A DNA stretch of 64,000 bases from positions 1-64,000 of the IMG/VR virus record IMGVR_UViG_3300021960_006131; one strand, given 5' to 3'. Each line of letters begins with the position of its first letter. Position 1 is the first letter of the stretch. The DNA comes from a virus. Below the pieces are notes generated by a model, which ran no database searches, had not been told where the DNA came from, and saw nothing but the letters and a program-made list of their open reading frames with translations. Positions 16,131 to 45,091 of this stretch are shown here, one piece after another. Made by a program: the position numbers and the translations under genes.

Positions 16131-16160
16131 ATAAATATGAGTGTACTAGAAATTAGTACA
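16131..16160 (+). promoter_or_regulatory. late-type promoter ATAAATA plus 5' leader hairpin heading the + arm of the enzyme island
   Basis: GATAAATA at 16130-16137; TGTACTA-gaaat-TAGTACA at 16142-16160; CAGGAG RBS. Confidence 0.6.
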
Positions 16161-16182
16161 GAGACATAAACAGGAGAACAAA

Positions 16183-17505
16183 ATGGCCTCAATCGGATTC
16201 ATTGGGGTAGGCAAGTTAGGACAAGCCTGCGCCGAGATGGTCGCCGAGGTCCATGATGTTGTTGGTTATGATGTCAATCCAGTAGAGCCTGAAAACTTTA
16301 CAATGGTTGACAATATGGAAGATGCTGTAAAAGGACAAGACATTGTTTTTATCGCAGTACCTACTCCACATGATCCACAGTATGATGGAAAGGCACCTAC
16401 CAGCCATTTACCTAACAAGGACTTTGATTACACGATAGTTAAAGACATTCTTGAAAAAGTAAATGCTGTAGCGACCCAAGAACAATTAATAGTCCTTATA
16501 TCAACAGTACTTCCAGGTACTGTTAGAAGAGAATTTATTCCATTAATTACCAACACAAGATTTGTTTATAATCCATACTTAATTGCTATGGGCACAGTCA
16601 AGTGGGATATGGTTAATCCAGAAATGGTAATGATTGGAACAGAAGATGGAAGTGAAACAGGTGACGCAAAAGAACTTGTTGACTTCTACAAAACAATAAT
16701 GCAAAACAATCCTAAGTACATTATAGGTACATGGGACGAATGCGAATGTATTAAAGTTTTTTATAATACATTTATATCAGCAAAAGTAAGTTTAGTAAAT
16801 ATGATACAAGATGTTGCAGAAAAACAGGGCAACATCAATGCAGAAGTTGTATGTGATGCACTTGCAAACTCAGACAGACGTATTATGGGACCAGGTTATA
16901 TGAAGCCAGGTATGGGCGATGGTGGTGCATGTCACCCTAGAGATAATATTGCCTTACGTTATATGGCAGAAAATTTAGACTTAGGTTATGATTTGTTTGA
17001 TGCTGTGATGCTTTCTAGAGAAGTACAAGCAGAAAACATGGCAAAACGTCTAATGGAACTTGCAGGTGGTCAACACCCAGTATATGGATTAGTACCAGAC
17101 AAGCCTATTATTATTGTAGGTAAAGCATACAAGCCACTTGTACCGTATGAAACAGGCTCTAGCAGTATGCTTGTTGGACATTACATTGAAAAAGCAGGAT
17201 TTGAATTATATTACTACGACGAACAAACAGGCGACATGCCTCCGTCGGAAGTATTAGATAGTCCTGCTGTTTATCTTTTAGCACATAACCCAGAAGTCAC
17301 ATATGGCGATCAATTAGACACAGTACCAAGTTGGTATGGTGAACATAATGTCACAGATTGCGACGAAGCATTAAGTGTTAAGACAGGCAATGGTTCAGAA
17401 CTTAGTTTTGCTATCAATAGTACAGTAGTAGACCCATGGAGAAAGACACCCGACATTGAAGGTGTTACAGTCATCCACTACGGGAATACTAGAGGAGCAA
17501 AATGA
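16183..17505 (+). CDS. UDP-glucose/GDP-mannose dehydrogenase family protein
   Basis: 'GFIGVGKLG', 'IAVPTP', 'STVLPGT', 'K...NTF...K.S..N', catalytic 'GDGGACHPRD'. Confidence 0.92.
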   Translation: MASIGFIGVGKLGQACAEMVAEVHDVVGYDVNPVEPENFTMVDNMEDAVKGQDIVFIAVPTPHDPQYDGKAPTSHLPNKDFDYTIVKDILEKVNAVATQEQLIVLISTVLPGTVRREFIPLITNTRFVYNPYLIAMGTVKWDMVNPEMVMIGTEDGSETGDAKELVDFYKTIMQNNPKYIIGTWDECECIKVFYNTFISAKVSLVNMIQDVAEKQGNINAEVVCDALANSDRRIMGPGYMKPGMGDGGACHPRDNIALRYMAENLDLGYDLFDAVMLSREVQAENMAKRLMELAGGQHPVYGLVPDKPIIIVGKAYKPLVPYETGSSSMLVGHYIEKAGFELYYYDEQTGDMPPSEVLDSPAVYLLAHNPEVTYGDQLDTVPSWYGEHNVTDCDEALSVKTGNGSELSFAINSTVVDPWRKTPDIEGVTVIHYGNTRGAK

Positions 17506-18293
17506 ACATAGATCAACAAATACTTGATCACATATTCCATAAGTGGGGTAGTGACAGTGAAAAACTTGCTTTGAATGAGCAATATCGCTATACCCCTCCC
17601 TACCCTACTTTGGCTTTAGATGATTTTATACCATACAATGTAGCAAAACTGCTTTACGAAGAAAGCCAAACAATACCTAAAAAGTATTGGACCACGTTTA
17701 CAAGAGCAGACAGTTACATGGAAGAGTGCAAAGACTTAACTGAGGCACCAGTTGCCAGAGGAGTTGTTAGTGCTTTACATAGCAGAGAGTTTCTCACGTG
17801 GTTAAGTCAAGTATGTGACGTACAACATTTATTACCAGATCCTTATTTAGTAGGTGCTGGGTATATGAAAAGTTACAAAGGTGATAGTTTGAAAATACAT
17901 TCTGACTTTAACTGGAATGAAGAATGTCAAACACACAGAGCATTAAGTTTAATATTATATTTTACACCTGACTGGGACGAAGCATGGCACGGTGACTTAC
18001 AATTTTGGGATTTTGAAAAAACAGAAAAAGTAGTCAGTTACCCTCCTAAGATGGGTAATGTGGTTGTGTGGAAATATCACAAACGTGGTTTCCATGGACA
18101 TCCAAATCCAATTGAATGCCCTGAAGATAAATTTAGAGTAGGCTTTAGAACATTTTATTATATATCAGACAGTAAACACGATTGGAGAGATCCACCACAC
18201 AAAAGTTTATATTGGTATGACAAAGAAAAGAATCAACCATACCATTTAGAAAATGAATACGGACACGGTAAACTAAAAGACGATGACAAATAA
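17502..18293 (+). CDS. 2OG-Fe(II) oxygenase
   Basis: HxD 'IHSDFN', 'LILYF..DW...WHGDL', distal 'FHGH', basic 'FR'. Confidence 0.85.
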   Translation: MNIDQQILDHIFHKWGSDSEKLALNEQYRYTPPYPTLALDDFIPYNVAKLLYEESQTIPKKYWTTFTRADSYMEECKDLTEAPVARGVVSALHSREFLTWLSQVCDVQHLLPDPYLVGAGYMKSYKGDSLKIHSDFNWNEECQTHRALSLILYFTPDWDEAWHGDLQFWDFEKTEKVVSYPPKMGNVVVWKYHKRGFHGHPNPIECPEDKFRVGFRTFYYISDSKHDWRDPPHKSLYWYDKEKNQPYHLENEYGHGKLKDDDK

Positions 18294-19209
18294 TTACAAG
18301 TATCAAGGTCCGCTTAATGGCGGTTATGCTATACAGGACAAAGCCATTACATGGGAATTAAGAGACTTTTGTGAAAGCACATACGAGTGGCGAGACTTCT
18401 TTGCCGCTGATGGTGTTACAGATCACAGAGAAAAGTTTATCGAACGTTTTGGTAGATGGATTCGCAGTAGTGAATTAAATACCATCGACGGATTAGATGC
18501 TTTCTCTCATGTTACTCAAACTAATGGTACTAGTGAAGCATTCAGTATGTTTATGCAACGTCATATAGACAAGAACTTTAAATTTTTTAAAGGCGACTTT
18601 ATGATGCACAAAGTTGCTTGTAATAATATGAATGCTAACTGGGAATGGATTTACAATTACGGACAGATTAAAAAAGGCGATGCAGTAATTATCAGTTGTC
18701 CTTTTAGTGACACAGGCAGATTAAAAGAAGACATGCACGAGTTGTTAGAATGGTGCACAATTAATAACGTACCAGTACTAATAGATATGGCGTACTTTGG
18801 AATGTGCTATGGAATAGATATAGACGTAGACAAGCCATGTGTTGAAGAAGTTACTTTTAGTTTAGGAAAAACATTTCCTATTATAGGTGCTAGAGCAGGC
18901 ATACGTTTACAACGTACGGAAATAGATGATGCTGTGTTATTTGCTAACCAACACGGTATAGTAAATAACTTTGGTGCAATGATAGGCGAGTTTGCCATGA
19001 GTGCTTGGGGACCAGACTATATACCTAACAAGTACATGAAAATGCAATGGGTAGTTTGCAATAAATTAAAATTAAAACCAACCAATTGTATTATATTTGC
19101 ACAGAGCAATCACAATGAACATCAGAAATTTAATAGAGGCAATGACTTAACAAGGCTCTGTATATCAAAATTACTAGTAGAGGAATATGAACGAACCAAA
19201 GCATTGTAG
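18283..19209 (+). CDS. PLP-dependent (fold type I) aminotransferase-like enzyme
   Basis: 'NGTSEAF', 'ISCPFSDTG', 'IDMAY', 'FSLGKTF...GARAG'. Confidence 0.75.
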   Translation: MTNNYKYQGPLNGGYAIQDKAITWELRDFCESTYEWRDFFAADGVTDHREKFIERFGRWIRSSELNTIDGLDAFSHVTQTNGTSEAFSMFMQRHIDKNFKFFKGDFMMHKVACNNMNANWEWIYNYGQIKKGDAVIISCPFSDTGRLKEDMHELLEWCTINNVPVLIDMAYFGMCYGIDIDVDKPCVEEVTFSLGKTFPIIGARAGIRLQRTEIDDAVLFANQHGIVNNFGAMIGEFAMSAWGPDYIPNKYMKMQWVVCNKLKLKPTNCIIFAQSNHNEHQKFNRGNDLTRLCISKLLVEEYERTKAL

Positions 19210-20413
19210 TTTACTGTGGACACACCTCAGTAACGAACCAGGCGGAACTTGTAGAAGTTGCTGTATTGCTCGTGAAAGAATTTCACGACCAGATGGTTCA
19301 GACTACACGTTAGGCGAAGATTCAATAAGGGACATTTTTCATAGTGATTATATGAAAAATTTAAGGCAGGAAATTCGCGAAGGCAAGACGCCGGAGAATT
19401 GTGCTACATGTTGGATAGATGAAGACAATGGTAAAGAGTCTAAGCGACAGTTATACAACGGATACGCAGAATGGAGATACCCAGATGGAATAGATTACGA
19501 GGCTGAACCCGATATGCCGCGGGACTATCAACTTATATTAGGAAACGCATGTAATTTGAAATGTAGAACTTGTAATGCAAATTACAGCAGTAAATGGAGA
19601 AAAGAATCTATAGATAGAAACATAGAATTTTGGGAACCACCCTCTAAGATAGATTTACACGACTTAGAACAATCTCAGTTTTGGCTAGACATAGAGGATT
19701 GGTTACCCCATGTTAGAGTTTTAGAAATAATGGGTGGCGAGCCTTTCTATATGAAAGAGTTTCGCAAACTCATTGACAAGTTAGTGGACATGGGAGTAAG
19801 CAAAAATATAATGATTACTCTCAGCACTAACGGCACATTCTACAATGACAAACTAATAGATAAAATTGTAGGCAACTTTGAGAACTTAGGGTTCAACATA
19901 AGTTTAGATGGCATAGAGCAAAAGTTTGATTATCTACGCCATGGTGATAGTTGGAATAATGTAGTAGAGAACTTAGATAAGTTTTATAAGTTACACACAG
20001 AGCACGATCATGTTAATATAAATGTGACACATACTGTGAGTGTGTGGAATTTCTTTTATCTAAGAGAGTTTCATCATTATTTTGAAACAGTTTATCCTGA
20101 ATTTTTAATTTGGAATAACCTAGTACACTTTCCAGAATGGTGCGAAGCAAATGTTGTTCCGTCACCAGCAAAAGAACAAATTATAGATAAAGTACGCAAT
20201 CCTGAAAAATACGGTTTGCCTGCTTGGAAACAAACAAAGTATGATAAAGACATAGCACCGTTAGTTGCTCATGCTGGTACTGACAGCACAGAAGAACATT
20301 GGCAAAAATTTATAGAACAAGTCAATGCTGGTGATGTGTATAGGAGCGAAAGTTTTGAAGAAACATTTACAGAACTTTATAATGTAGTAAAGGGAGACAT
20401 GATAAGTATATAA
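19187..20413 (+). CDS. radical SAM enzyme with N-terminal Cys-rich (SPASM/Twitch-like) domain
   Basis: CNLKCRTC, GGEP, 'LSTNGT', 'ISLDG'; N-terminal C..LW.H / SCC / CATCW. Confidence 0.9.
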   Translation: MNEPKHCSLLWTHLSNEPGGTCRSCCIARERISRPDGSDYTLGEDSIRDIFHSDYMKNLRQEIREGKTPENCATCWIDEDNGKESKRQLYNGYAEWRYPDGIDYEAEPDMPRDYQLILGNACNLKCRTCNANYSSKWRKESIDRNIEFWEPPSKIDLHDLEQSQFWLDIEDWLPHVRVLEIMGGEPFYMKEFRKLIDKLVDMGVSKNIMITLSTNGTFYNDKLIDKIVGNFENLGFNISLDGIEQKFDYLRHGDSWNNVVENLDKFYKLHTEHDHVNINVTHTVSVWNFFYLREFHHYFETVYPEFLIWNNLVHFPEWCEANVVPSPAKEQIIDKVRNPEKYGLPAWKQTKYDKDIAPLVAHAGTDSTEEHWQKFIEQVNAGDVYRSESFEETFTELYNVVKGDMISI

Positions 20414-20414
20414 C

Positions 20415-20597: not shown

Positions 20598-20757
20598 GAA
20601 AAAGAAAAAAGAATTTGATATGTCTGACCTGGGCGGTATCAGAGATGAATGGAAAAATGTTAATTGGGATCTCGTACAACGTATGCGATTTATGAATGCT
20701 GATGCAGAAATAGATCCAGCAGATGGTTACGAATTAAAAAAGAGTGATGAAGACTAG
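20590..20757 (+). CDS. 55-aa hypothetical peptide, not in ORF track
   Basis: MNKKKKKEFDMSDLGGIRDEWKNVNWDL...KKSDED*; fills the gap and overlaps both neighbours. Confidence 0.55.
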   Translation: MNKKKKKEFDMSDLGGIRDEWKNVNWDLVQRMRFMNADAEIDPADGYELKKSDED

Positions 20758-21193
20758 ATATTACATATTAGCAGGTATAGTTTACACATTGCTTATAGGC
20801 TTTACTGCAAGTTCAATTCAACAAAGAATTACAAGTGAAGCAATTAAAGACCAATGTTTTATAGATGGCTGTACAAAAGTATATGAATTCACAGGTGAAG
20901 TCGGTGGCGAGGAATGGGAAGAACTAATTGTTATTGCCGAAGAGGCCCAAGAAGAAGCAGAGATGTGGAAAGCCGATGCTGAAGCAAAATGGGAAAGTGA
21001 AGGAAATCCGTACTACAAAGCAGGTAGTGAATCAGATGCTGACGCATACATAAATTTATTTTTTATGTTATCAGATCCAATCAATTGGGTATTCACATTG
21101 ATAATTGCTACATTTATAGCAGGTTTCTATCTAGCATTTTACAGTTGTAAACTTTGGATAGAAAGATATTTTAAAGGAAACGATGATGAGTAA
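20744..21193 (+). CDS. membrane protein with two predicted hydrophobic segments
   Basis: 'YYILAGIVYTLLIGFTA' and 'WVFTLIIATFIAGFYLAFY'. Confidence 0.7.
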   Translation: MMKTRYYILAGIVYTLLIGFTASSIQQRITSEAIKDQCFIDGCTKVYEFTGEVGGEEWEELIVIAEEAQEEAEMWKADAEAKWESEGNPYYKAGSESDADAYINLFFMLSDPINWVFTLIIATFIAGFYLAFYSCKLWIERYFKGNDDE

Positions 21194-22403
21194 AACATAC
21201 TGCCCATTACCGTTCACGCATTTAGCAACACACCCACATGGCGGGTGTACATTATGCTGTATAAGTGATCACAAAAATGGAGCAAGTAGAAGTAAAAATT
21301 ATAGAGAAGACGGTGGTAATGAATGGTTAGACTTAAATAACCATAGTATAAACGACATTATGAATTCTGACTACTACAAAGAAGTTAGATTGCAAATGTT
21401 AAACGATGAAGAACCAGCCGCATGTACAAGGTGTTATGATGAAGAAAGAAAAGGTATTACCAGTAAACGTCAGTCAGAGTCCGAGGTATTTACGCACTTC
21501 GGCCCCGATAGAGCAAAAGAACTTACTAGAGAAGACGGCCATATTGATTTGGATCTTCGTTTTGTTGAACTTCGTCTTGGTAATCTGTGTAACGTCAGGT
21601 GTCGTACTTGTAATCCAGCAAGTTCATCTCAGTGGCGTAATGATTATAAAAAAATTGAAGCAACTTTGGACTTCGTTACGAAATATGGTAACATAGACAA
21701 AGATGAATACAAGTGGCCTGAGGAAGATGCTTTTTGGGAAGACTTATTTTATTCAGCACCCAATTTAGAATTAGTATATATCAATGGCGGCGAGCCAACA
21801 CTAATTAAAAAGCATTGGGAATATTTAGAAAAATTAATAGCGGCCGATAGAGCAAAGAATATGACTCTATGGTATAATATTAACATGACAAACTTACCAG
21901 ATAAAACTTTTGATATCTGGAAACAGTTTGGCAAAATACAAGTTAGTGCTAGTATAGATGATATAGCAGAACGTAATTATTATATTAGACACCCAAGCAA
22001 TTGGGAAGATGTCACAAATCACTTACAGCAAATAATGGCAGAAAATTGGATAGAAACCAGTATATGTCAAACTATAAGTGCATATAACTATCCTTACTTA
22101 GGAGAGTTTCATAATTGGGCAACTAAAGAATTAGGATTACATGTACATTTAAACTATGTATACGATCCTTCTTTCCTTAGTCCTAAAGTTATACACCCAG
22201 AAGCAAGAGCACAGATACACTCACAGTTTAGAAAAGACTTTGGTAATCATCATGCCCTAGGAAATTTATTGTCTATGTTTGACAATGATGATTGGGACGA
22301 AGATGGTTGGAAAAAGTTTAAAGTCTACAATGACAGACTCGATCTAATTAGAGAACAAGACTGGCGAGAAGTGTTTCCTAGATTAGTCGAGTTATGTGAA
22401 TGA
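21183..22403 (+). CDS. radical SAM enzyme with N-terminal SPASM/Twitch-like domain
   Basis: CNVRCRTC, GGEP, 'ASID'; N-terminal CPLPFTH / LCC / CTRCY. Confidence 0.9.
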   Translation: MMSKTYCPLPFTHLATHPHGGCTLCCISDHKNGASRSKNYREDGGNEWLDLNNHSINDIMNSDYYKEVRLQMLNDEEPAACTRCYDEERKGITSKRQSESEVFTHFGPDRAKELTREDGHIDLDLRFVELRLGNLCNVRCRTCNPASSSQWRNDYKKIEATLDFVTKYGNIDKDEYKWPEEDAFWEDLFYSAPNLELVYINGGEPTLIKKHWEYLEKLIAADRAKNMTLWYNINMTNLPDKTFDIWKQFGKIQVSASIDDIAERNYYIRHPSNWEDVTNHLQQIMAENWIETSICQTISAYNYPYLGEFHNWATKELGLHVHLNYVYDPSFLSPKVIHPEARAQIHSQFRKDFGNHHALGNLLSMFDNDDWDEDGWKKFKVYNDRLDLIREQDWREVFPRLVELCE

Positions 22404-23779
22404 AAGTAGCAGTACACCAAAACGATCCTACAAAAAAAATCAACGAAGAATTACAACTTAACTTCTTTAAAGAAGATTCTGTTTTTATGCAACTTTGTTG
22501 GAATAGAATTATACACCAACGAACACATAGTTACTTAAAAGAACTTAACGAAGATATGATAACTATGAATGTATATGATGCAGACAAAAAAGGTCTTGTT
22601 CCTTTTGAAATAATAGAAGAAAGTGATACCAGCAAGATAAGAGAATATGATGTTTTTGTAATTCATCCGAGTGCATTAGCAAGATTGGATACTAAAGAGA
22701 TAGAGCATTTAGTTAATAGCAGAAAAACTCGTGTAGTATTAGACTACTTGTTTGAGGCAGAAATAGATACTTATATGCCTCTTATAACAACAATAAAAGA
22801 CTATATTGGTACACCTGATAACTGGATGTTGCTTGTAGGTGGCGACATTGTGTCTAGTGACGAGAATCTACTACGGCAGTTTAAAGAAAAAACTTCAGTA
22901 GACTTAGGATTTTTTAATTACTTTAGAATTAACGAAGCATGTATTGGTAAAGAAAAATTACGTGACGGAAAGTATAGCATAGATACTATACAGAAAAATT
23001 TTAGAGCACAAAAAAAATATGATTGTTTGTGTTTAAATCTTAAACCAAGATTTCATAGAATAGCATTAATTAAATGGCTGAAAGAAAGAGGAATGATTGA
23101 TAGAAATCTTGTTACTGCTAGATGGGGATATCAACAACCAACAAAACGTGGAGACGAGTTTTATGAAATTAAACATTCGCATGGATTTTTCCAAGAATTA
23201 GAATCAGGCGACTATTCAGAGAGGCTTAGGCGAGAGTGTGCATTTTATAACGAAACACCTGAAACATTACTACAATTTGTTAAAGAAAATACAGAAGAAT
23301 TAATTATTCCTGTTATGCAAGACATCTATCAAAAAAGCGACGACAGATCATTTGTTAATGATGTATATAAAGATACATATTATTCTTTAGTAACCGAAAC
23401 ATATTACGATGATGAATTTATTAATCAATTACCAGACATGCCAGAGGAATACAATCACAATTTAAAGAGAGCCTTTGTTACTGAAAAAACATATAAGCCA
23501 CTAATGTATGGCCACCCTTATATGGTAATTGGAAATATAGATACAAACACAGTTTTAAAAAATCAAGGATTTGAAACATTTGATAAAGAGTTTGAATTTG
23601 AATACGACACACTAAATGATAGGAATAGATATAACACAATATTAAGTAATGCTATGACATTTGATTATGAAAAATTTGATTACCATACACTAGGTAAAAT
23701 TGTACATAACTTTCATAACTTTTATGATAATAGAAAATTACTAGAACACATGGATACACTATGGAAAATAATACAGTAA
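22400..23779 (+). CDS. glycosyltransferase-like protein (GT10/fucosyltransferase-like C-terminal motif)
   Basis: 'CLCLN.KPRFHR', 'SLVTET', 'FVTEKTYKPLMYGHP', 'GFETF'; paralog of next gene. Confidence 0.5.
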   Translation: MKVAVHQNDPTKKINEELQLNFFKEDSVFMQLCWNRIIHQRTHSYLKELNEDMITMNVYDADKKGLVPFEIIEESDTSKIREYDVFVIHPSALARLDTKEIEHLVNSRKTRVVLDYLFEAEIDTYMPLITTIKDYIGTPDNWMLLVGGDIVSSDENLLRQFKEKTSVDLGFFNYFRINEACIGKEKLRDGKYSIDTIQKNFRAQKKYDCLCLNLKPRFHRIALIKWLKERGMIDRNLVTARWGYQQPTKRGDEFYEIKHSHGFFQELESGDYSERLRRECAFYNETPETLLQFVKENTEELIIPVMQDIYQKSDDRSFVNDVYKDTYYSLVTETYYDDEFINQLPDMPEEYNHNLKRAFVTEKTYKPLMYGHPYMVIGNIDTNTVLKNQGFETFDKEFEFEYDTLNDRNRYNTILSNAMTFDYEKFDYHTLGKIVHNFHNFYDNRKLLEHMDTLWKIIQ

Positions 23780-33248: not shown

Positions 33249-33256
33249 ATCAATAG

Positions 33257-36485: not shown

Positions 36486-37081
36486 CTTTGTAAATTTACT
36501 ACTTCTTTACCTATTGTAAGATCTATTAGTTTTAAATCTGTTCTATTTGTAATTAATTCTACAACACGTTTTGCATAGTCTGTAATGTTAGTGGCATCAA
36601 TACCGCTAGGACTTACACAGAACGCATTACACACGTTGCTAGACGCACTATATACTAATTGTTGCATCATACTTCTTAATACTGCATACATTACAAACTG
36701 TTTATCCTGTTGTGGCCATGCTGTTATTGAACTGCTTACACCACAAATTGTTATTTCTTTACTGCTATTTTCTAACCATTTTATTAACTTTGTAAAAAAT
36801 AAAAACAATGGTGTATAATTAAAAAACATACTTGACATTTGTTGTAAAGTTATATTACTATAATTCTTATTATCTATTACTAATGCAATTTGTTCTTCTA
36901 TGTTTGCATTTATTACAATTATATCAGGTACTACTTTACCATCTATAAACTTATCAAAGTCTGCATAATCAACATTATCTCTACCAAAGCCATATGTACT
37001 AATATCTTGTTCTTTAAGTTTCTTAATAATATTACCTGCGAAATCAGACGACTTTCCAAACACCCATGCTAATTTTCTCAT
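36482..37081 (-). CDS. atypical short-chain dehydrogenase/reductase (Rossmann fold)
   Basis: 'VFGKSSDFA', 'DIIVINAN', 'VSSS', YxxxR in place of YxxxK, 'VSPSGI'. Confidence 0.55.
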   Translation of the reverse strand: MRKLAWVFGKSSDFAGNIIKKLKEQDISTYGFGRDNVDYADFDKFIDGKVVPDIIVINANIEEQIALVIDNKNYSNITLQQMSSMFFNYTPLFLFFTKLIKWLENSSKEITICGVSSSITAWPQQDKQFVMYAVLRSMMQQLVYSASSNVCNAFCVSPSGIDATNITDYAKRVVELITNRTDLKLIDLTIGKEVVNLQR

Positions 37082-38040
37082 GTACCTATCAATCCTTTTT
37101 CTAATAGGTCTTGTATTTGTCGCTCAGTGATCATTGCACCCCATCTTTTTGGGTTTACAAATGTTGCTTTGAAAAATTTACTCATTTGATCGTTGGGTTC
37201 GAACAGCATCATACCTTGAACTTCTTCATTGATTTCTTCTCCTAGTTCATTAACAAGTTGTTTTAGATGTTCATTGCTTTCTATATTGTTTTTTGTTTCT
37301 TCAAAAAAGCCTTTGAACCAATCGTAATCTGATATCTGATTAGTATTCCAGTTACTTAAAACTGTCATCTTACAACCTAGTCTTGCTCCATAGATTGCCC
37401 ACCAACCATTGTCTACGTCTGTGCCAACATTACACCAAACATTTAATCTGTTAAAGTTACCATACCATATCTTATCTTGGAACACATGAGGTGATACTCT
37501 TGCGCCTTGGTCTAAACTTAGTTTAACACCTTCCCTAAAGCCGGCTCTAAAGGCTTGGAATGGACTAGCAGTTTGATGTACTTCTGAGAATATATCATTC
37601 ATTTGTATGTAGTTAAGTTTCCAACAAAACTCCATACCTTCGCCATCTGTTGCGGCTTCGTGTGTATTGATACTTTTTGTATATTCTTTAGGCCAGCACT
37701 TTAATCCGCCGTTGCCGTATACTAATCCATTTAATAAATTTTTAGCATTCCAACTGAAGATACTTTCTGATATATCGTTACCATCATGATCTTTTTCTGG
37801 AAACTCTAGTTCCTGATTAAAGAATTCATCCATAACAATGTTGTCACCGTCTACTGTGATAAAACGATCTGTTTCTGATTGATTGGCACATTCTTTGTGT
37901 GCGGCATCAAAGCCTTTAACTCCGTGTACACGTTTTGCCCACGGTACTTTGTTTAGTAGGTCTGCCCAGTTTTCTTCACAGTTGGGTTCATCGTATGAAA
38001 TATAAAATATGTCTAATTCTGTGACGTCTATTTTTGCCAT
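37078..38040 (-). CDS. GT-A-like glycosyltransferase (single-module paralog of 27248-30292)
   Basis: 'DIFYISYDE', 'VKGFDAAHK', DxD 'TVDGDN', 'YGNGGLK', 'AFRAGFREGVKL'. Confidence 0.65.
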   Translation of the reverse strand: MAKIDVTELDIFYISYDEPNCEENWADLLNKVPWAKRVHGVKGFDAAHKECANQSETDRFITVDGDNIVMDEFFNQELEFPEKDHDGNDISESIFSWNAKNLLNGLVYGNGGLKCWPKEYTKSINTHEAATDGEGMEFCWKLNYIQMNDIFSEVHQTASPFQAFRAGFREGVKLSLDQGARVSPHVFQDKIWYGNFNRLNVWCNVGTDVDNGWWAIYGARLGCKMTVLSNWNTNQISDYDWFKGFFEETKNNIESNEHLKQLVNELGEEINEEVQGMMLFEPNDQMSKFFKATFVNPKRWGAMITERQIQDLLEKGLIGT

Positions 38041-38089: not shown

Positions 38090-38707
38090 TTAGGCGACTC
38101 TGATATACTTATCAAATATTTTTCTGGTATAAATGCTTTTATCTGAACAGTCATGATTGATTTTAAATTCTAATTCTTTATTTTTGAATAAATCTGGTAA
38201 TGATATTTCTATGCTATCATATAAAAAATGCGGATCATCGATGCTGGTAATATACAATGCCATCCTTTGTTCACCTTTAAATGAAAAGTTATCTATATCA
38301 ACATTATTTGTAATATTAGTATGTAGTTTATCACTGAGTGTTACAATTACTTTATTTTTTAATCCTTGTATTTTTACGTCAAACTCTGTGTTATCAGACA
38401 GTCTTATTTGTGTTAGCATCTTTGATGCTGATTTAAACTTTTCTAGTTCTATTACTTTGGTAACAAAAGAATATACTCCTTCCTCATTGGGATTAGTTAA
38501 TACTAAAAAATCATTAACAGTTTTATTATTTTTTGGATCTTCAAATATTTTACACTGATCATATGTAAATACCGCATGGTTATATTCTAAGTAATCATCA
38601 GATTCTGCTCTTCCATAATAAGAAATAGCACCGCTGTCGTCAAAATACACGTGACGATCACTTTGCTGTTGGGCCTTTCTAGCCTTTTCTAAGTCCTCTA
38701 ACTTCAT
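38090..38707 (-). CDS. hypothetical protein
   Basis: 205-aa ORF in operon. Confidence 0.75.
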   Translation of the reverse strand: MKLEDLEKARKAQQQSDRHVYFDDSGAISYYGRAESDDYLEYNHAVFTYDQCKIFEDPKNNKTVNDFLVLTNPNEEGVYSFVTKVIELEKFKSASKMLTQIRLSDNTEFDVKIQGLKNKVIVTLSDKLHTNITNNVDIDNFSFKGEQRMALYITSIDDPHFLYDSIEISLPDLFKNKELEFKINHDCSDKSIYTRKIFDKYIRVA

Positions 38708-39557
38708 CTTCTAATGTCTCTATAATATTATTTGTTAACCATTCTTTATCTACATAATGAAACGGATAGTGTTGTTGAAAGTTTCCTACTTTAAAATTGG
38801 ATACACTACTAAAATAGGTAGGTATGCTCAGTGTCCATTTTTCATCTAACAATGAACCACCTGGCAGATCCTGTATAAAACTTTTCATGTGAGTAAATGT
38901 AGGCATATCTGTTAAATCGTCTACTGTTGTTTCGCTTTCTAATCCTAATAGTTGTATTGCTAATGCATACACAACATCAGCACTTAACTTATTAGGCTTA
39001 CCATTTGGCATGTATTTAAAATAAAACCTTTGCCAATTTTCAAATATCAACTGAATCATCTTAAAAAGTTCACTTGCTGTTTCTGATTTTTTAAAATAAA
39101 AGAATGCTGTATATATGTTTGGCATATTATTTTTAATAAAGTATTCTCTATAATATTTATTGCTAGGGTCTGCTGGTTCTCCCCTATATGTTTTAATATT
39201 TGTAGTTGCCCATACATCTTTTTCTTCTAATATATCCCACCAATGACTAACATCAGTAGGAAAAATCATATCAGCATCTAGTATGACTGTTTCATCGTAT
39301 GGCGTCATATAATAGTATTTCCATTTGTTATCTATTTTCCAATCTGCATCTGCGGCATCATCCTTCCATGGAATCTCTATTACCTTATCAAAAACTTTTT
39401 TATATTTTTCTGGTACTGTACTTTTATCTTCTACACATACTGCTAGGTTACTTACTTTTGATTGTGTGATCTTTAAACTTAATGCAAGAGCATAAGCCAT
39501 TCTTAGATAATTAGTATCTGCAGAATTTTGTGCAATAACAATATAACCTTTAGACAT
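38679..39557 (-). CDS. GT8-like glycosyltransferase
   Basis: 'YLRMAYALALSLK', 'TPYDETVILDADM' (DxD), 'HMK'. Confidence 0.7.
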   Translation of the reverse strand: MSKGYIVIAQNSADTNYLRMAYALALSLKITQSKVSNLAVCVEDKSTVPEKYKKVFDKVIEIPWKDDAADADWKIDNKWKYYYMTPYDETVILDADMIFPTDVSHWWDILEEKDVWATTNIKTYRGEPADPSNKYYREYFIKNNMPNIYTAFFYFKKSETASELFKMIQLIFENWQRFYFKYMPNGKPNKLSADVVYALAIQLLGLESETTVDDLTDMPTFTHMKSFIQDLPGGSLLDEKWTLSIPTYFSSVSNFKVGNFQQHYPFHYVDKEWLTNNIIETLEDEVRGLRKG

Positions 39558-40335
39558 TTTCTAGCCTCGGTTTGATATGTTCTTCAAAATACATTCTATA
39601 CCCTTTTTCGTTTGGGTGATTTTGATAATCATCTTCGCTCCAGACATCGCTATCAAGTTCTTCATATTTTATTACTTCTTGTTGTATGCCTGGTAGATCA
39701 ATACAATCTTTGATTTGATCTGTTAAATGTGTATACATCCATTTATGCTCAGGATTCAACACTTTTTGTCTATGCTTTTCATTTATCCATATAAACATAA
39801 CTTTTATATTATGTTTTTCACAAAAAGATTTTACCAAATTATATAATGTTAATGTATTAAGTATGTCTGTGTATTCGTGTTGTAAATTTACATAATATTG
39901 AGTAGATAAATGATATAGTTCTGGAAATTCTTTCTCAACATCTTGATGCGAATGCCACGGAGCAATAGATACCCAGCCATTGTCTTCTATAGAAACTGCA
40001 TCATAATCTGTAAAACTTCTAGGGGTAATAACTCTCTCCCCCAAAAATAAATTTGGACTATCTGGAATCATTTCGCGGCTAGATAAAAAAGCATATCTAT
40101 GGATCATTGTCCATTGCACTATTCCAAATATGTCTTCTGGTAAAACACCTGAGTCTAGTTTTTGTTTTACATGATTCATAAATGTATGTGCAATAAATTG
40201 ATTACCGCATCCACCTACACCTAGTGGTATTAATTCTCTACCCAAATGTTCTGCAACAAAGTCATTCCACATTTTATGCGGTGTGGATATTGTGTCACTA
40301 AAACTACAACCAGATGATATAAAATACTTAGGCAT
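39550..40335 (-). CDS. SGNH/GDSL-hydrolase-like protein
   Basis: Block I 'SGCSFS', 'GVGGCGN', C-terminal 'HPNEKGY'; GGAG RBS before ATG 40335. Confidence 0.6.
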   Translation of the reverse strand: MPKYFISSGCSFSDTISTPHKMWNDFVAEHLGRELIPLGVGGCGNQFIAHTFMNHVKQKLDSGVLPEDIFGIVQWTMIHRYAFLSSREMIPDSPNLFLGERVITPRSFTDYDAVSIEDNGWVSIAPWHSHQDVEKEFPELYHLSTQYYVNLQHEYTDILNTLTLYNLVKSFCEKHNIKVMFIWINEKHRQKVLNPEHKWMYTHLTDQIKDCIDLPGIQQEVIKYEELDSDVWSEDDYQNHPNEKGYRMYFEEHIKPRLENV

Positions 40336-41209
40336 TATATATCTCCAGTAATTTATCTGCATGTCTTTGAAGTGCCCACTTATTCATAATGTGTAAGTCT
40401 ACATCTTTCCATCTGCTTAGTTGAAAATCTGCATTTGATTTAGGTTTTTCTAAAAACATTGTGATATCATTTACAGCATTCACTTCATGTATATCATCCC
40501 AATCAAATGTTTTATACATTTTTTCTATGGGTAATTGTTGTTGTGCTTCACTTTTAAATCCATTCATAACATGAGCGGCAACACTAAAACTGTAATCGTT
40601 TCTGTAAAGCATGCCTGGTATTTCATATAAGTCTTTATAGTAGTTCCAATTTTCTTTTACGTCTTTTACTACATTAAAAAAACTTTCTACATATGGCGTC
40701 TTTTTAAAATACACAACTGTTGCCCAATACATTGATATACCAAAATCGCTTATTCTTTTATATGATTCTGATCTACCAAATTGTATATCTTGCACATCTC
40801 TGTGTAGCATAATATCGTTTTTATGATCCCAACAAGCATTTAAACTGTCGCTGAGTACTAAGTAATCTACATCCATTACTATGGTTTCGTCATAAGGTGA
40901 TATATCATATGCATCGCATCTGTTAGCATTGTAGAATGGTAATACTTTTACACTATGATTAGTGTCTCTATAATTGCGATGATTTTTTGCTTTGAAGTCT
41001 AAATCTTTTTCAGCAATAATTATATTATCAATATAATCTTCTACTTTGATATTTTTAGATGTGTAGTCATACGAGTTTTGATCAGTAACTACTGTAATGC
41101 TATGCTTACCAAGATTGTATCTAATCATACTTGCTGTTACACAGGCAAGTTTTAAATACTCAATCTCTTCATTGTTATGAGCGTATAATAAAAATCCTTT
41201 AGTCGTCAT
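40328..41209 (-). CDS. GT8-like glycosyltransferase, paralog of 38679-39557
   Basis: 'YLKLA', 'SPYDETIVMDVDY' (DxD), 'RNDYSFSVA', 'HIMNK'. Confidence 0.7.
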   Translation of the reverse strand: MTTKGFLLYAHNNEEIEYLKLACVTASMIRYNLGKHSITVVTDQNSYDYTSKNIKVEDYIDNIIIAEKDLDFKAKNHRNYRDTNHSVKVLPFYNANRCDAYDISPYDETIVMDVDYLVLSDSLNACWDHKNDIMLHRDVQDIQFGRSESYKRISDFGISMYWATVVYFKKTPYVESFFNVVKDVKENWNYYKDLYEIPGMLYRNDYSFSVAAHVMNGFKSEAQQQLPIEKMYKTFDWDDIHEVNAVNDITMFLEKPKSNADFQLSRWKDVDLHIMNKWALQRHADKLLEIYNA

Positions 41210-41561
41210 CGAGATCTATGTCTATTAGTTTATGGACCTTGCGAGCCTTTCTTAACTTGACATATTCTGCATGATAATCATTTGTCACTTCAAAGTATCT
41301 ACTCAACAGTTCATCTAAAAATGCTGATAGGTCTTCTATTTGTATAGGGTTTTCGTAGTTGTCTATTAAGACACTTTCGTTATACTCTTTTTCAATTAGT
41401 GTATTTACAAATGTTATTAGTTCTTGTGATACTGTAAATGTACCACCATTTGTAGAAAGGATAAGCCTCGTTTGAGTTTTGGATCTCAAAGAGGCTATCT
41501 GATTATTTAATGTTTGCCGATAATTGGCGAATTCTAATGCTTTGGTAAGTCGCTCACTCAT
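41199..41561 (-). CDS. hypothetical phage protein
   Basis: 120-aa ORF, CAGGA RBS, ATAAATA/GTAAATA boxes at 41598-41581. Confidence 0.8.
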   Translation of the reverse strand: MSERLTKALEFANYRQTLNNQIASLRSKTQTRLILSTNGGTFTVSQELITFVNTLIEKEYNESVLIDNYENPIQIEDLSAFLDELLSRYFEVTNDYHAEYVKLRKARKVHKLIDIDLDDD

Positions 41562-41600
41562 ACAAGTCCTGTGTTGTGTATATTTACAAACTATTTATTA

Positions 41601-42497
41601 TTATAAATCTGAGTTTGTAGTATAAGTCGGTGTAGCAACTACAACACTATAACCATTTGGCAATGTTCCACTATTAGGTCTATACTGTCCAGAAACACTT
41701 GTTAATGTTCCGTCAACACTATCAAAATATCCTCTACCTGTATGTGAATCACCAAATGTGATTAAAAATCTCAATACAGTTGAACTATCTGCTCTTGCTT
41801 GAATAGAATAATAGTTAGTTGAGTATGACCCAGAACCTGCTTTAGTATATATAGTTTGGTATGTTGTTGTTAAATCATTATTACCAATACTTGTAGTAGT
41901 TCCTGAACTTGCAGTAGTTTGAGTATAATTCATTTTAATTGTACCCATAGCACTTAACATGTTGGTCCAGTCTGTGTTCTGATCAGTAGTTGAACCACCA
42001 CTTCTACTTGCTGTAAAATATAAACTTCCGCCTGCATTAAAAAATGCATTTCTAATTGCGGCACTTCCAAAAGTAACAGTAACATCATGAGTAACTGTAG
42101 TACTCCATGCGGCTGTTCTAGTACTAGTGTCTTTTGCTTCTTGCGACAAGTATGACGCATCAGCAGTTAACCTAGCATTATATCCGTTAGTTATTGTAGA
42201 TTGTATATTATTTAAATCTGTGTCTTGAATTAGTGCGGCATTACTAACGTCTGAAACGTTGTTACTTGCACCTGTATAAACTGCAATATCCTGAGCGGCA
42301 TTAATTATGTCATTAGTGTTTGTGTCGGTAATTGTTGCACCGGCGGCTGGATTATGAACACTCCAACTTTGACCCCAACCTTCGTTTGAGCCACCTGGAG
42401 TACCAGTTATTAATAAAATATTATTCCTTGCAACGTCCCAATCAGCGGCGGTTATTGTTGAACCTGCTGATCTATTCGTCATGGTTGATAATGCCAT
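41601..42497 (-). CDS. probable virion structural protein (Thr/Ser/Gly/Asn-rich, beta-rich)
   Basis: Composition typical of tail/baseplate appendages; 'FFNAGG' motif; late box and AGGAG RBS. Confidence 0.65.
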   Translation of the reverse strand: MALSTMTNRSAGSTITAADWDVARNNILLITGTPGGSNEGWGQSWSVHNPAAGATITDTNTNDIINAAQDIAVYTGASNNVSDVSNAALIQDTDLNNIQSTITNGYNARLTADASYLSQEAKDTSTRTAAWSTTVTHDVTVTFGSAAIRNAFFNAGGSLYFTASRSGGSTTDQNTDWTNMLSAMGTIKMNYTQTTASSGTTTSIGNNDLTTTYQTIYTKAGSGSYSTNYYSIQARADSSTVLRFLITFGDSHTGRGYFDSVDGTLTSVSGQYRPNSGTLPNGYSVVVATPTYTTNSDL

Positions 42498-42559: not shown

Positions 42560-42572
42560 CAAAAATAAGTGA

Positions 42573-44510
42573 TTATGTGTCTTGAGTAAACCTTTTTGTC
42601 CACAAAGTAAGACTGTATTTAACGCCTTCTTCTAGCGGTTCACACACATGAGGATGTGTAACTTGCCCAGGCCACATCAGCATTAAACCTCTTGTAATGT
42701 GCCTGTTTGTAAAATGCTGTCTAGGAAATGTTAATTCAGCACCTTGATAGTTATCATTTAATTTAACACTACCGCTGACCATACTAGCATCATTATGTAA
42801 TGCTAATTCTGTTTGTGTATCTAGGCTATATCGCATAGCAAAGAAGTCTCTTATACCGTACATACTCATAGGTGGCCAATATGCTTCTAATTGCGGCCAT
42901 ATGTTTTTGGTTAAATGGTTTTCTAAATGTTTATATAAATTTGGACATAATTTATTAATTCTAATTTCTTGAGCCGGATAAGCATCATCAGGTCGTGGTG
43001 CCCAACCACCTGCTTCGTCACATGCTCCAATTAAATCGTCGCACATCTGCGGTGTCATGTATTCAAATGCTACAATATCATCTGCTACAGTCCATATTTT
43101 ATTATACTTTGCTAGATTTATAGGTACAACACTACCTTTATTCATTATTTGATTGACTAGTGATCTATATGCTGTTTTATCATCAGGACCACCATTGCCA
43201 TGCAATACACAACTGTAGCAACCTGTTTCAGAATTATAAACTTGATTATTATTGCTTACACTTAATGAGTTTGCTGTACCACTTACACATTGAAATATAT
43301 AATTCTCTACATCTAATTTAATATTAAATTTACCACTTAAAAACAATTTTTGATAATACAGTTGATCGTCATCTTTCTTTTTAATGTCTGTTCTAAGCAT
43401 TTCTTTTAAAACAACTGCTCTACCTATAAAACCACCACTATTTAAAAATCTATTTCTGGTATGAACTTTTGGAAATTGATCTGCTATACTATCATCTGGC
43501 CATATAAGTGGTTCAGCACCAAATACTACATCAGCACCAAACTGTTTAAATCTTTTAACTAATTCTTGTTCGTTATCGTTAATGATGACATCATACCCGT
43601 CTACAAACATTACTATATCATGGTCGTCAACATTACGCAATCTACTTCTAAGATAATGAACTTTGTGTCCGCCACCGGGACCATCTGCCATTACACCGCC
43701 TTCCCATGGCTCACCTACGCCTAACATTTCTAATTTTACATCGTGTGTTTTACAACTATTGATTAAGTCTTCTGCTTTTAAACTTTCAGTTGCTACAGTG
43801 AATACTTTAAACTCTTTCCATTCTTTAAATGTAATAGCAGTTTCAGTGTCTGTTTTTCCTATCTTTGTTTCTCTAGCATACGGATGAAATACATTTGTTT
43901 TATATGCCAATCCTTTTAGTTTATTAAAATTTTTAAATTGTGGGTAAGTTTCTATTAGTGGGTTTGTACCTAACATCATGGGAATGTATTCATCTGCAGG
44001 TATCATGTATTGCAATGCATCAGCATTTAAAAGTTTTTTAGCACCTTCAACACTTAAGGCATAACCGGCTGTCCAATAACAATATCCTGGTATTTCAAAT
44101 AAATCATCAAATCCCTGAGCCTTATCGTCCATGTTCCATTTTGATAGATAAACTAAATCAAATTCTTCTAATCTTTCTTTTATTTGTGTAATGTTATATG
44201 TTTCGACATTGTGATATAAATCATCTTCTAGTATAACTGCAGGTTCGTTATTTTTAACTATCTTGCCCCATGCAGTAATATGACTTAACATACAACCTAC
44301 TTCGCCAGTTGTCAACGGTCTATTTTCTAAAGGATCTAACCAATTTTTGCACACTTGCATACCTTGACTTAGAACTTTACTATAGTCAACTAAGTTACCA
44401 TCAATGCCTTGAATACGTTCATAATCTGTTATTTCTAACTTTGCAAAAAGATCTAACATATTTTGATTTCGATCAGTTCGTTTATCTAAATTAATATAAT
44501 AATGTTTCAT
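42573..44510 (-). CDS. three-domain fusion: GT25 glycosyltransferase + PLOD/LH3-like GT domain + lysyl-hydroxylase-like 2OG-Fe(II) domain
   Basis: GT25: 'YINLDKRTDR','GEVGCMLSH','ILEDD','YWTAGY','PADEYIP'; PLOD-GT: 'FTVAT','GGGHKV','FVDGYDV','FGAE..IWP','FLNSGGFIG','DDDQLYY','HGNG'; LH: 'RYS...Q..L.LHNDAS','GGA-like GAELTF','HPH','YSL'; ATG 44510 overlaps upstream TGA. Confidence 0.85.
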   Translation of the reverse strand: MKHYYINLDKRTDRNQNMLDLFAKLEITDYERIQGIDGNLVDYSKVLSQGMQVCKNWLDPLENRPLTTGEVGCMLSHITAWGKIVKNNEPAVILEDDLYHNVETYNITQIKERLEEFDLVYLSKWNMDDKAQGFDDLFEIPGYCYWTAGYALSVEGAKKLLNADALQYMIPADEYIPMMLGTNPLIETYPQFKNFNKLKGLAYKTNVFHPYARETKIGKTDTETAITFKEWKEFKVFTVATESLKAEDLINSCKTHDVKLEMLGVGEPWEGGVMADGPGGGHKVHYLRSRLRNVDDHDIVMFVDGYDVIINDNEQELVKRFKQFGADVVFGAEPLIWPDDSIADQFPKVHTRNRFLNSGGFIGRAVVLKEMLRTDIKKKDDDQLYYQKLFLSGKFNIKLDVENYIFQCVSGTANSLSVSNNNQVYNSETGCYSCVLHGNGGPDDKTAYRSLVNQIMNKGSVVPINLAKYNKIWTVADDIVAFEYMTPQMCDDLIGACDEAGGWAPRPDDAYPAQEIRINKLCPNLYKHLENHLTKNIWPQLEAYWPPMSMYGIRDFFAMRYSLDTQTELALHNDASMVSGSVKLNDNYQGAELTFPRQHFTNRHITRGLMLMWPGQVTHPHVCEPLEEGVKYSLTLWTKRFTQDT

Positions 44511-45079
44511 CGCCAATGTGGGCCTTCCACCCATGTTACTAAACTGTGTCTAGTGCCACTAGTTACTGGTGTGACTCTGTGCCTGTGAAAACTTGGAAAT
44601 ACTATCACTGATCCTTTGCTAAATGCTTCTGAAGGTAACTGCGGTAATATTGTATCAAATTGAAACTCACCACCTTCGTATTCTGATGGGTCTGTTAATT
44701 GAAATACTAAACTTAATTTTCTATGAAAAGATCTACTTTCTGCCCAATCTACATCGTGATGCCAATCGTACTTGCCTGGATTTTCAGGATTTCCTTCGTA
44801 CTTTGTAAACTGTATTTCGTTTACATAACGCAAGTCCAGATCAAAAGAATCTCTGTTTGCCTGATTGGCATAATACCATATTTCGTCTACTATTGCTTTT
44901 TCTGATTTAGGATTAAGCCAACGTATTTCGCTTTTACGATATGATTCATCATGCTTACTTTCTTCAAATCCTATTACAGCCTCACGTGGCTCATAGTTTT
45001 CTGTTGCGTAATTTACTATGTAATCGCACCAGCCTGGGTCTAATGCTTGATTAAAATATAGCCAATAGTCTCCTTTCAT
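44507..45079 (-). CDS. 2OG-Fe(II) oxygenase (PKHD/prolyl-hydroxylase-like)
   Basis: 'YDWHHD', 'RKLS...QL....YEGGEF', 'FPSF..HRVTPVTSGTRHSLVTW'. Confidence 0.9.
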   Translation of the reverse strand: MKGDYWLYFNQALDPGWCDYIVNYATENYEPREAVIGFEESKHDESYRKSEIRWLNPKSEKAIVDEIWYYANQANRDSFDLDLRYVNEIQFTKYEGNPENPGKYDWHHDVDWAESRSFHRKLSLVFQLTDPSEYEGGEFQFDTILPQLPSEAFSKGSVIVFPSFHRHRVTPVTSGTRHSLVTWVEGPHWR

Positions 45080-45084
45080 ACTAT

Positions 45085-45091
45085 TAGTTAT
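45085..45091 (-). promoter_or_regulatory. late-type promoter variant ATAACTA, 5 nt before ATG
   Basis: ATAACTA-ATAGT-ATG(45079); same geometry at 33260-33254 before ATG 33248. Confidence 0.5.

Follow-up and report, generated by a model that had tools for sequence, protein, structure and literature searches.

A fibre-linked island of glycosyltransferase-like, radical SAM and hydroxylase genes in an uncultured marine T4-like phage and its possible role in decorating fibre-type proteins

Organization of the Island

The stretch of DNA analysed here (the window) makes up the first 64 kb of a linear contig of 90.5 kb (IMG/VR record IMGVR_UViG_3300021960_006131) from an uncultured marine giant phage, and at 16131-45091 it carries an island of about 29 kb in which two convergent arms, adjoining the tail-fibre genes, encode sugar-making, sugar-transferring and protein-hydroxylating enzymes together with enzymes of radical chemistry. 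The phage is a T4-like myovirus, the contig encoding a gp6-like baseplate wedge protein (phrog_10646, E 0), a gp5-like hub, gp46/47-like nuclease subunits and a DNA ligase, with the gp6-like wedge gene located upstream of a giant structural gene. Five close relatives in IMG/VR are rated by CheckV as 15-26% complete, such that the whole genome may be about 350 kb with about a quarter of it sampled. Estuary and marine metagenomes of 2018-2024 contain near-identical sequence in 14 DNA runs. Judged from its sequence the island is read here, with modest confidence, as one late-expressed module by which fibre-type proteins of the phage itself would be decorated after translation.

The − arm forms one continuous block, all on the same strand, with two fibre genes, a 225-aa gene and the gene for a 7041-aa structural protein; its contiguity and shared orientation with the fibre genes had been claimed in an earlier prediction made from the letters alone (the original prediction). 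The + arm comes after DNA-metabolism genes (ligase, exonuclease). All the open reading frames (ORFs) named in that prediction were found in place. Of its enzyme labels, 17 of 22 were backed by family or fold searches using Pfam, NCBIfam, PDB profile searches and AlphaFold2 (AF2) structure prediction, with the remaining five having weak backing or none; short-chain dehydrogenase/reductase (SDR) and SGNH labels found no support, and a methyltransferase and two "glycosyltransferase-like" genes have only weak leads. The island thus described combines a cassette of glycosyltransferase (GT) and radical S-adenosylmethionine (SAM) genes with a lysyl-hydroxylase fusion, inverted into two arms.

A Conserved Core Linked to Fibre Genes

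The glycosyltransferase-like genes of the − arm are led by one at 37078..38040 encoding a GT-A-fold protein with a helical C-terminal half and a D64 x D66 motif, both aspartates of which are invariant across 20 sequences. Its AF2 model (pLDDT 84) gave a best VIA match at Z 10.4 (rmsd 3.2 over 142 residues), residues 2-163 matching B4GALNT1 (Z 10.4), STIV A197 (10.1), ThuS (9.8), SunS (9.3) and PBCV-1 A64R (8.8). The presence of ThuS and SunS, both peptide/protein glycosyltransferases, among the best fold matches favours decoration of fibre proteins; nucleotidyltransferases score nearly as high against the model (Z about 9), so that the protein could also be a transferase of that type. Relatives of the gene are abundant in IMG/VR, with at least 599 pattern matches of which 581 were confirmed, and the family extends to at least 6865 protein clusters, nearly all lacking a Pfam assignment. 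Many of these relatives are about 535 aa rather than about 325 aa in length and carry an extra domain, two of them with a Pfam GT2 match.

Upstream of the GT-A gene on the same strand lie two paralogous GT8-like, glycogenin-like genes (38679..39557 and 40328..41209). A profile built from 13 sequences matches glycogenin at 4.9e-6, the match being confined to the first 108 positions. D96 is invariant, and neither protein matched Glyco_transf_8 in the Pfam scan. They are followed upstream by a gene for a conserved 120-aa partner protein (41199..41561, late-type box at 41592-41598), a possible chaperone or adaptor, and by a gene for a 298-aa fibre-type protein (41601..42497, box at 42553-42559) which is 29% Ser/Thr and is a candidate acceptor. 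The AF2 model of the 298-aa protein (pLDDT 89) has a helical N-terminal part and a beta-sandwich, for which only three unnamed phage proteins were matched in BFVD; the fold is not called new. Beyond the island, and again on the − strand, are the two tail-fibre genes (45116..49377; phrog_19602, tail fiber protein), which share an N-terminal and a C-terminal domain, then the 225-aa fibre-block gene (49388..50065), with a late-type box 5 nt before its ATG, and the gene for the giant virion structural protein (50105..64000 and on to contig position 71230; phrog_10938, 4.3e-62).

This arrangement was compared with 61 IMG/VR loci centred on homologs of the second radical SAM gene and 80 loci centred on GT-A homologs (of at least 581), many of the latter ending early at contig ends. 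Before alignment duplicate proteins were removed, and L048 was left out of alignment A2 on account of an in-frame stop. In the 80 GT-A loci the order upstream of the GT-A gene on the same strand is 225-aa gene, fibre gene or genes, 298-aa gene, 120-aa gene, GT8, GT8 and GT-A, with the homolog of the 40328 GT8 gene present in 78 and that of the 38679 gene in 77; the 120-aa gene occurs 73 times, the 298-aa gene 61, a fibre gene 54 and the 225-aa gene 39 times. The rest of the content is looser, with radical SAM genes in 56 loci, the dehydrogenase in 14, the carbamoyltransferase in three and the lysyl-hydroxylase fusion in two. The loci thus share a constant core, behind which comes a tail of tailoring genes (radical SAM, carbamoyltransferase, sugar-nucleotide enzymes) that varies from one to another. 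The tail was sampled further through 147 ORFs of at least 120 aa on the + strand downstream of GT-A that had no tblastn match to the window island; the 25 commonest of their 50 families included, by Pfam, 36 radical SAM proteins, five NeuB and five Asp/Asn beta-hydroxylases, together with DegT, B12-binding, GDSL and RmlC families and an epimerase.

Relatives with at least 90% identity keep the convergent layout of the window, while relatives at 45-57% identity carry on a single strand GT-A, radical SAM 3, 4 and 5, the dehydrogenase, radical SAM 1 and 2, more radical SAM genes, the carbamoyltransferase and a repeat protein (collinear examples being L012 and L027). Since the island genes are collinear on one strand in these distant relatives, the two arms amount to one module, and the synteny comparison as a whole, including a cultured phage, bears out the claim that the genes form a single unit tied to the fibre genes.

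The cultured phage is the Ralstonia jumbo phage RsoM2USA, the only one with a match to the GT-A gene (46% identity) in a tblastn search of 50,697 phage records, in which cultured pelagiphages and cyanophages gave no match. RsoM2USA ORF355 to ORF347 encode in turn a fibre-type protein, the 120-aa protein (ORF354), GT8, GT8, a protein weakly like a conserved hypothetical 205-aa protein of the window (ORF351; window gene 38090..38707, −), GT-A, one radical SAM enzyme, a second GT-A-type protein and a putative methyltransferase, all annotated as "hypothetical". In ORF355 the N-terminal domain common to both fibres of the window (E 8.5e-5 and 2.5e-4) is joined to the beta-sandwich of the 298-aa protein (E 1.8e-10). 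The whole set comes directly after ORF356 and ORF361, and both of these (ORF361 being over 288 kDa) are described as detected in virions by mass spectrometry in the parts of the RsoM2USA report consulted (PMC8504454).

Promoter-Like Boxes and Expression

Eight ATAA(A/C/G)TA boxes, most of which read GATAAATA, lie in the island at 16131, 20402, 25346, 33260, 38071, 41598, 42559 and 45091, exactly as predicted; the first of them (16131..16137, +) stands 45 nt before the dehydrogenase gene. The motif is depleted in the window, with 47 occurrences against 84 +/- 8.9 in shuffled sequence (all 100 shuffles having at least 47), and 17 of the 60 boxes in the contig are in the sense orientation and no more than 70 nt before the start of a gene, in intervals that hold about 3% of strand positions. 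Baseplate and hub genes (75830, 76477, 82062, 86142) have this box in front of them as well, as does the 225-aa gene (50071), so the claim that the island shares its box type with structural genes holds. In its extended form, (G/T)ATAA(A/C/G)TA, the box is enriched before genes including those of the baseplate and can be likened to the T4-type late −10-like TATAAATA box, which is read by a gp55-type sigma factor, and it is on this analogy and on the neighbouring genes that the term "late" is based.

Among the relatives the box is found before the 225-aa gene in 24 of 31 cases, before fibre 1 in 29 of 49, before the 298-aa gene in 10 of 27 and before the GT-A gene in 16 of 80, against a background of 0.026 per 80 nt. 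It is rare before the GT8 genes (1/77 each) and before the first radical SAM gene (3/52). The near absence of boxes before the GT8 genes suggests that the enzymes are read through from the fibre block, and co-transcription with the fibre genes is accordingly a prediction from sequence. At six genes exactly 5 nt separate the box from the ATG and a Shine-Dalgarno sequence is lacking (15807, 33254, 45085 and 50071 in the window, 75830 and 82062 further along the contig). The mRNAs of these six genes may have little or no leader.

Where the two arms meet, a perfect TTGACA-17-TATAAT promoter (31206-31178, −) with an AGGAG sequence precedes a gene for a 56-aa two-helix membrane peptide (30978-31148, −). 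The original prediction had made this the only sigma-70 promoter of the island, serving one small membrane gene; promoter and gene were both found and it is the only perfect consensus in 16-36 kb, but "only" in the broader sense is not assertable, since looser matches number 84 against 88 +/- 11 expected by chance.

Parts of the − arm are represented in contigs from four metatranscriptomic libraries. The 298-aa gene, a prolyl 4-hydroxylase (P4H)-like gene, one GT8 gene, both fibre genes and the 225-aa gene are matched by pieces with 0-2 differences, and 26 differences are seen in a 957-nt piece that spans the other GT8 gene and the 120-aa gene.

A Collagen-Type Lysyl Hydroxylase Fusion and Its Neighbours

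Between the 298-aa gene and the fibre genes lies a gene for a 653-aa fusion (42573..44534, −) of a COLGALT1-like GT25 domain (Pfam GT25 2.4e-24), an LH3-type GT domain (PLOD-GT 3e-61) and a lysyl hydroxylase (2-oxoglutarate (2OG) oxygenase 1.1e-3). Against PDB and mimivirus proteins it matches LH3 at 7.4e-46 in two stretches, R699 at 1.9e-32, COLGALT1 at 3.7e-30 and the L230 lysyl hydroxylase (LH) domain at 4e-5. The residues of the HxD...H iron site (H580, D582, H627, H629) are invariant in four phage sequences and align with LH3, and the acidic GT motifs are conserved. All three domains and the iron site are thus held in common with LH3/PLOD3 plus COLGALT1 and with mimivirus L230/R699, with the difference that in the phage the order is GT25, GT, LH in a single 653-aa chain, the activity of which is predicted. 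Immediately upstream is a P4H/PKHD-like 2OG oxygenase gene (44507..45079, −; 2OG 2.1e-14) with a late-type box at 45085-45091, 5 nt before the ATG.

The fusion has 267 confirmed relatives in IMG/VR, of which the best 80 loci were examined; a P4H/PKHD-like homolog lies beside the fusion in 41 of these. A megablast search of cultured phages with 42573-47278 gave no match. In S-CAM9 and the Roseobacter phage CRP-6 the fusion follows tail-fibre genes with 59 and with 61 plus 37 Gly-X-Y triplets, among which Gly-X-Lys is frequent. Of the 80 best fusion loci 58 contain, on the same strand, a collagen-like run of at least eight triplets, whereas all 141 control loci (2.5 Mb) lack one. In these runs Lys occupies 0-75% of the Y positions, mostly 20-55% with three loci at 4% or below, and 0% of the X positions in all 58. 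Where at least 5 kb of upstream sequence was available a collagen run was present in 41 of 47 fusion loci, or in 41 of 42 once the five close relatives of the window are set aside. Some of the collagen-like fibre genes near the fusion are very long, with up to several hundred Gly-X-Y triplets (L159-L232). A literature search found no paper describing a phage lysyl hydroxylase with collagen-like fibres, as far as the sources consulted in part extend.

In the collagen pathway Lys is converted to hydroxylysine (Hyl), then to Gal-Hyl and Glc-Gal-Hyl. While in other phages the fusion stands beside Gly-X-Lys collagen-like fibres, the window lineage has no collagen neighbour in its contig or flanks. 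In one of the five close relatives a (GPQ)n run lies inside the giant protein at the place where the window phage has a Gly/Pro-rich stretch. For the window phage, the substrate of the fusion would either be encoded in the unsampled part of the genome or be a non-collagen fibre protein. The Gly/Pro-rich stretch of the giant protein (GGGGGGGYSGGGGGPGNPPPQDPPPQ...), near residue 4450, is a possible target of the P4H-like oxygenase.

Radical SAM Paralogs

Five radical SAM genes are present in the island, two in the + arm (paralog 1, 19187..20413; paralog 2, 21183..22403) and three in the − arm (paralog 3, 34953..36485; paralog 4, 33257..34942; paralog 5, 31208..32626). They are mutual paralogs, paralogs 3 and 4 being 31% identical, and all score well above the 170-bit cut-off of NF033640 (N_Twi_rSAM), with 305, 361, 322, 304 and 298 bits for paralogs 1 to 5 respectively. 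The CxxxCxxC cysteines (C136, C140, C143) and four N-terminal cysteines (C7, C26, C81, C84), the set expected to bind an auxiliary cluster, are invariant in the five. By cut-off and cysteine set they therefore fit NF033640, a family with no assigned reaction. A profile of the five paralogs matched only generic radical SAM enzymes in the PDB (SkfB, viperin, MoaA; E 0.002-0.006), so that no reaction is named here. In metagenomes 835 of 2040 candidate proteins match this type at E 1e-5 or better, all unnamed, and a tblastn search of cultured phages with paralog 2 gave only weak matches, in Ralstonia and Vibrio jumbo phages. The twitch radical SAM enzymes BtrN, SpeY and HygY oxidise or epimerise carbohydrates.

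The number of radical SAM genes per locus ranges from one to about ten in a row. In L032 and L037 about ten N-terminal-twitch paralogs form an unbroken row, in keeping with the 12 radical SAM genes noted in PMC5332604 for a marine genome of T4-like type. Outside phages, orthologs of paralogs 2, 3, 4 and 5 (36-52% identity) are clustered in seven Bdellovibrionota assemblies with no phage GTs nearby, one set being on a 3.7-Mb chromosome after TsaD-KsgA-SmpB and another after an arginase-family gene and an NDP-sugar (nucleoside diphosphate sugar) epimerase/dehydratase. From gene context, the epimerase/dehydratase and the phage settings point to sugar chemistry; the TsaD-KsgA-SmpB setting does not.

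These observations bear on the possibility, which we consider quite unlikely, that the island is split in function, the core serving the fibres while the radical SAM enzymes, dehydrogenase, PLP (pyridoxal phosphate)-fold protein, oxygenase and carbamoyltransferase make a separate product such as a modified nucleotide sugar for use elsewhere, a cofactor or other small molecule, or a modification of RNA or protein. Such a split would suit the absence of radical SAM genes from 24 of the 80 core loci, their varying number, the Bdellovibrionota sets that lack the GT core and the purely generic PDB matches. In most loci, however, GT-A is immediately followed on its own strand by the radical SAM genes, which seldom have a box to themselves (3 of 52); RsoM2USA has a single such gene, placed between its two GT-A-type genes; and the epimerase/dehydratase that precedes one Bdellovibrionota set speaks for sugar chemistry there also.

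Sugar-Tailoring and Other Genes

The + arm opens with a gene for a 440-aa NDP-sugar 6-dehydrogenase-like protein (16183..17505), matched by Pfam in its N-terminal (UDPG_MGDP_dh_N, 2.8e-15) and central (UDPG_MGDP_dh, 1e-17) domains with no C-terminal domain match, and scoring 148.5 bits against TIGR03026 (cut-off 189.8). Among the 61 loci collected around the 21183 radical SAM gene, 32 have a homolog. It is followed on the + strand by genes for a 263-aa 2OG-Fe(II) oxygenase (17502..18293; 2OG-FeII_Oxy_3, 3.8e-12), a short PLP-fold protein of 308 aa resembling class I/II aminotransferases (18283..19209; Aminotran_1_2, 7.6e-8, partial), which also has a CobD-like match at 1.1e-6, far under the cut-off, and a 149-aa protein with hydrophobic ends and no family (20744..21193). 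A NodU/CmcH-type carbamoyltransferase is encoded at 25539..27077 (+; Carbam_trans_C 1.8e-52, Carbam_trans_N 4.5e-42), and its 140 bits against the NodU equivalog, for which the cut-off is 1000, show that it is not NodU itself.

Three further genes of the + arm may also belong to glycan building. Two paralogous proteins of 459 and 527 aa (22400..23779 and 23761..25344; E 1.6e-13 between them) are possibly GT10-like, their only and weak lead being an Atlas GT10 cluster at 0.79, with no Pfam or PHROG function. A 1014-aa protein (27248..30292) consists of about nine GT-A-derived modules in which GG[IV]xLxP and [FW]WxVD motifs repeat about every 100 aa. Of the earlier description of this protein as a nine-repeat GT-like one, the repeats stand; only the last module, which alone is complete, aligns to the GT-A gene (E 1.7e-16). 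Homologs occur in 54 of the 61 radical SAM loci and 49 of the 80 GT-A loci. Beside it and conserved with it is a gene for a 238-aa possible methyltransferase (30265..30981, +), found in 35 of the 80 GT-A loci, for which the best PDB methyltransferase match is weak (E 0.43).

In the − arm a weak 2OG oxygenase-like gene (32613..33248; Pfam 1.4e-3) has a late-type box at 33254-33260, 5 nt before the ATG. A 199-aa protein previously labelled an SDR (36482..37081, −) has nothing to back the label in Pfam, PHROG or PDB sequence searches, and a 270-aa protein previously labelled SGNH (39550..40362, −) has a DUF6071 match at 1e-4, below the cut-off, its sole PDB row being an unrelated peptidase (E 0.0056).

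With GTs, radical SAM, PLP and carbamoyl enzymes in one place, the island might instead serve to hypermodify the phage bases for escape from restriction. T4-like phages glycosylate hydroxymethylcytosine, and both PLP and radical SAM enzymes take part in pathways that hypermodify thymidine; the + arm, moreover, comes after DNA-metabolism genes. Hypermodification of DNA is nonetheless judged very improbable, as no base hydroxymethylase, DNA kinase or TET/JBP-type oxygenase is found among the scanned genes of the 90.5-kb contig, the core lies behind fibre genes in the GT-A loci with late-type boxes, and the oxygenases are of P4H, PKHD and lysyl-hydroxylase kinds.

Function of the Island

Decoration of the phage's own fibre-type proteins is favoured by the travelling of the core with its own fibre-type protein across distant phages with differing hosts, by its predicted co-transcription with the fibres, by the presence of protein-modifying families and by the lack of export or lipid-carrier genes among those seen. 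The pathway as it might operate would begin late in infection in the cytoplasm, where the dehydrogenase, the PLP-fold protein, a 2OG oxygenase and the carbamoyltransferase would make or tailor nucleotide sugars or sugars already attached. The two GT8-like enzymes and the GT-A-fold enzyme would start and extend an O-linked glycan on the 298-aa protein, the fibres or both, in which the possible GT10-like pair and the repeat protein may join, with the 120-aa protein serving as chaperone or adaptor. By analogy with BtrN, SpeY and HygY the five radical SAM paralogs could edit the sugars or the acceptor through epimerisation, dehydrogenation or dehydration. Separately, the P4H-like oxygenase and the fusion would hydroxylate Pro and Lys of a virion protein, with Gal-Glc being added to hydroxylysine. 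The variable tailoring set would give the fibres differing surfaces, in the service of host recognition, shielding or stability.

A fuller version of this scheme is tentative and on present evidence doubtful, namely that GT-A and the two GT8 enzymes build a fibre glycan which the radical SAM battery edits residue by residue into a lineage-specific rare-sugar coat, with the fusion re-aimed at a non-collagen fibre.

The principal alternative is that the GTs and sugar enzymes alter the lipopolysaccharide (LPS) core, O-chain or capsule of the host so as to block superinfection or the sticking of progeny to debris, the link to fibres then reflecting co-variation of receptor and fibre. GT8, NeuB, DegT and RmlC are typical of surface-polysaccharide loci. 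Set against this, the same core with its fibre-type and 120-aa partners is present in marine T4-like phages and in a soil Ralstonia jumbo phage, the hosts of which have different envelopes, and its GT genes are predicted to be co-transcribed with fibres from late-type boxes. No membrane GT, flippase, polymerase, polyprenyl-phosphate transferase or ligase was found in the window or among the 25 commonest of the 50 accessory families (147 ORFs), and lysyl hydroxylases, P4H-like enzymes and Asp/Asn hydroxylases are families that act on proteins. Remodelling of the host envelope is on these grounds considered unlikely.

A number of points nevertheless weigh against fibre decoration. GT8 enzymes are best known from LPS cores, and because LPS-core GTs need no flippase of their own the missing export genes are weak evidence. 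The 298-aa protein is called fibre-type mainly because of the domain fusion in ORF355, its virion location being presumed, and its model has no clear structural relative, the best Foldseek match in the PDB being at E 0.029 and the best in a wide VIA search at Z 6.8, with none of 48,161 chains at Z 8 or above. The box also precedes non-structural genes, for example 6939-8165, and the RNA-library contigs, a weak sign that island genes are transcribed in nature, may include DNA. Bdellovibrionota sets without GTs raise the possibility that the radical SAM substrate is not the fibre glycan. No collagen-like run of at least four Gly-X-Y triplets is present in the ORFs of the 90.5-kb contig apart from the Gly/Pro-rich stretch of the giant protein, nor in the contigs of four of the five close relatives. 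Finally, the parts of PMC7029224 consulted favour a change of the host O-chain for the fibre-linked hypervariable islands of pelagimyophages.

The idea of an own-virion glycan pathway, put forward in the original prediction, therefore stands in part. The single module, the boxes shared with structural genes, the protein-modifying families and the sugar-nucleotide tailoring enzymes are in its favour, while the GT-free radical SAM orthologs and the missing collagen-like gene are not. Its analogy with giant viruses holds at the level of enzyme families, with mimivirus R699 and L230, and at fold level with PBCV-1 A64R.

Relation to Known Systems

An island of this kind is widespread and, taken here as probable virus-encoded virion glycosylation, has its outline already in print, where it is read differently (PMC7029224). 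The host recognition cluster (HRC) islands described there contain GT8, UDP-glucose 6-dehydrogenase and swappable radical SAM cassettes (Zaragoza-Solas et al., 2020), and like the present island the HRC of pelagimyophages and cyanomyophages is a variable island in the structural region beside a giant gene and fibres. They differ in that the sections consulted give no fixed core definition and no RsoM2USA occurrence, and in that the HRC is bounded by gp14, whereas the far boundary of the present island is formed by DNA-metabolism genes, gp14 not being seen in the contig. A literature search for the cassette found only PMC7029224 and PMC12801897. In a paper on "moraphages" four core GT groups are described, with their target left open in the part consulted (PMC12619734).

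PBCV-1, mimivirus, which has fibre glycans, and mycobacteriophages glycosylate their virions by means of soluble GTs and sugar-nucleotide enzymes of their own, which modify structural proteins in the cytoplasm, as is proposed here. In the mycobacteriophage case glycans on capsid and tail tube were reportedly described by Freeman and colleagues in 2023. None of these systems has a set of radical SAM paralogs, and their link is to the capsid where that of the island is to fibres. The match of the GT-A protein to PBCV-1 A64R (Z 8.8, rmsd 3.6 over 139 residues) is one of fold, and it has no sequence relation to the GTs of any of these systems.

If the fibres of abundant aquatic phages do bear lineage-specific glycans of the phages' own making, chemistry that genome annotation misses would bear on host range and adsorption, on the stability of particles and on how grazers or defences recognise them. 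The GT-A family alone comprises at least 6865 protein clusters, nearly all lacking a Pfam name. For the radical SAM family, to which no reaction has been assigned, a phage cassette whose acceptor is probably a defined one offers enzymologists an entry. The window lineage, as a natural exception to the rule that the fusion stands beside collagen, could reveal other targets of the enzyme. With the core present in cultured RsoM2USA the question is testable at the bench now.

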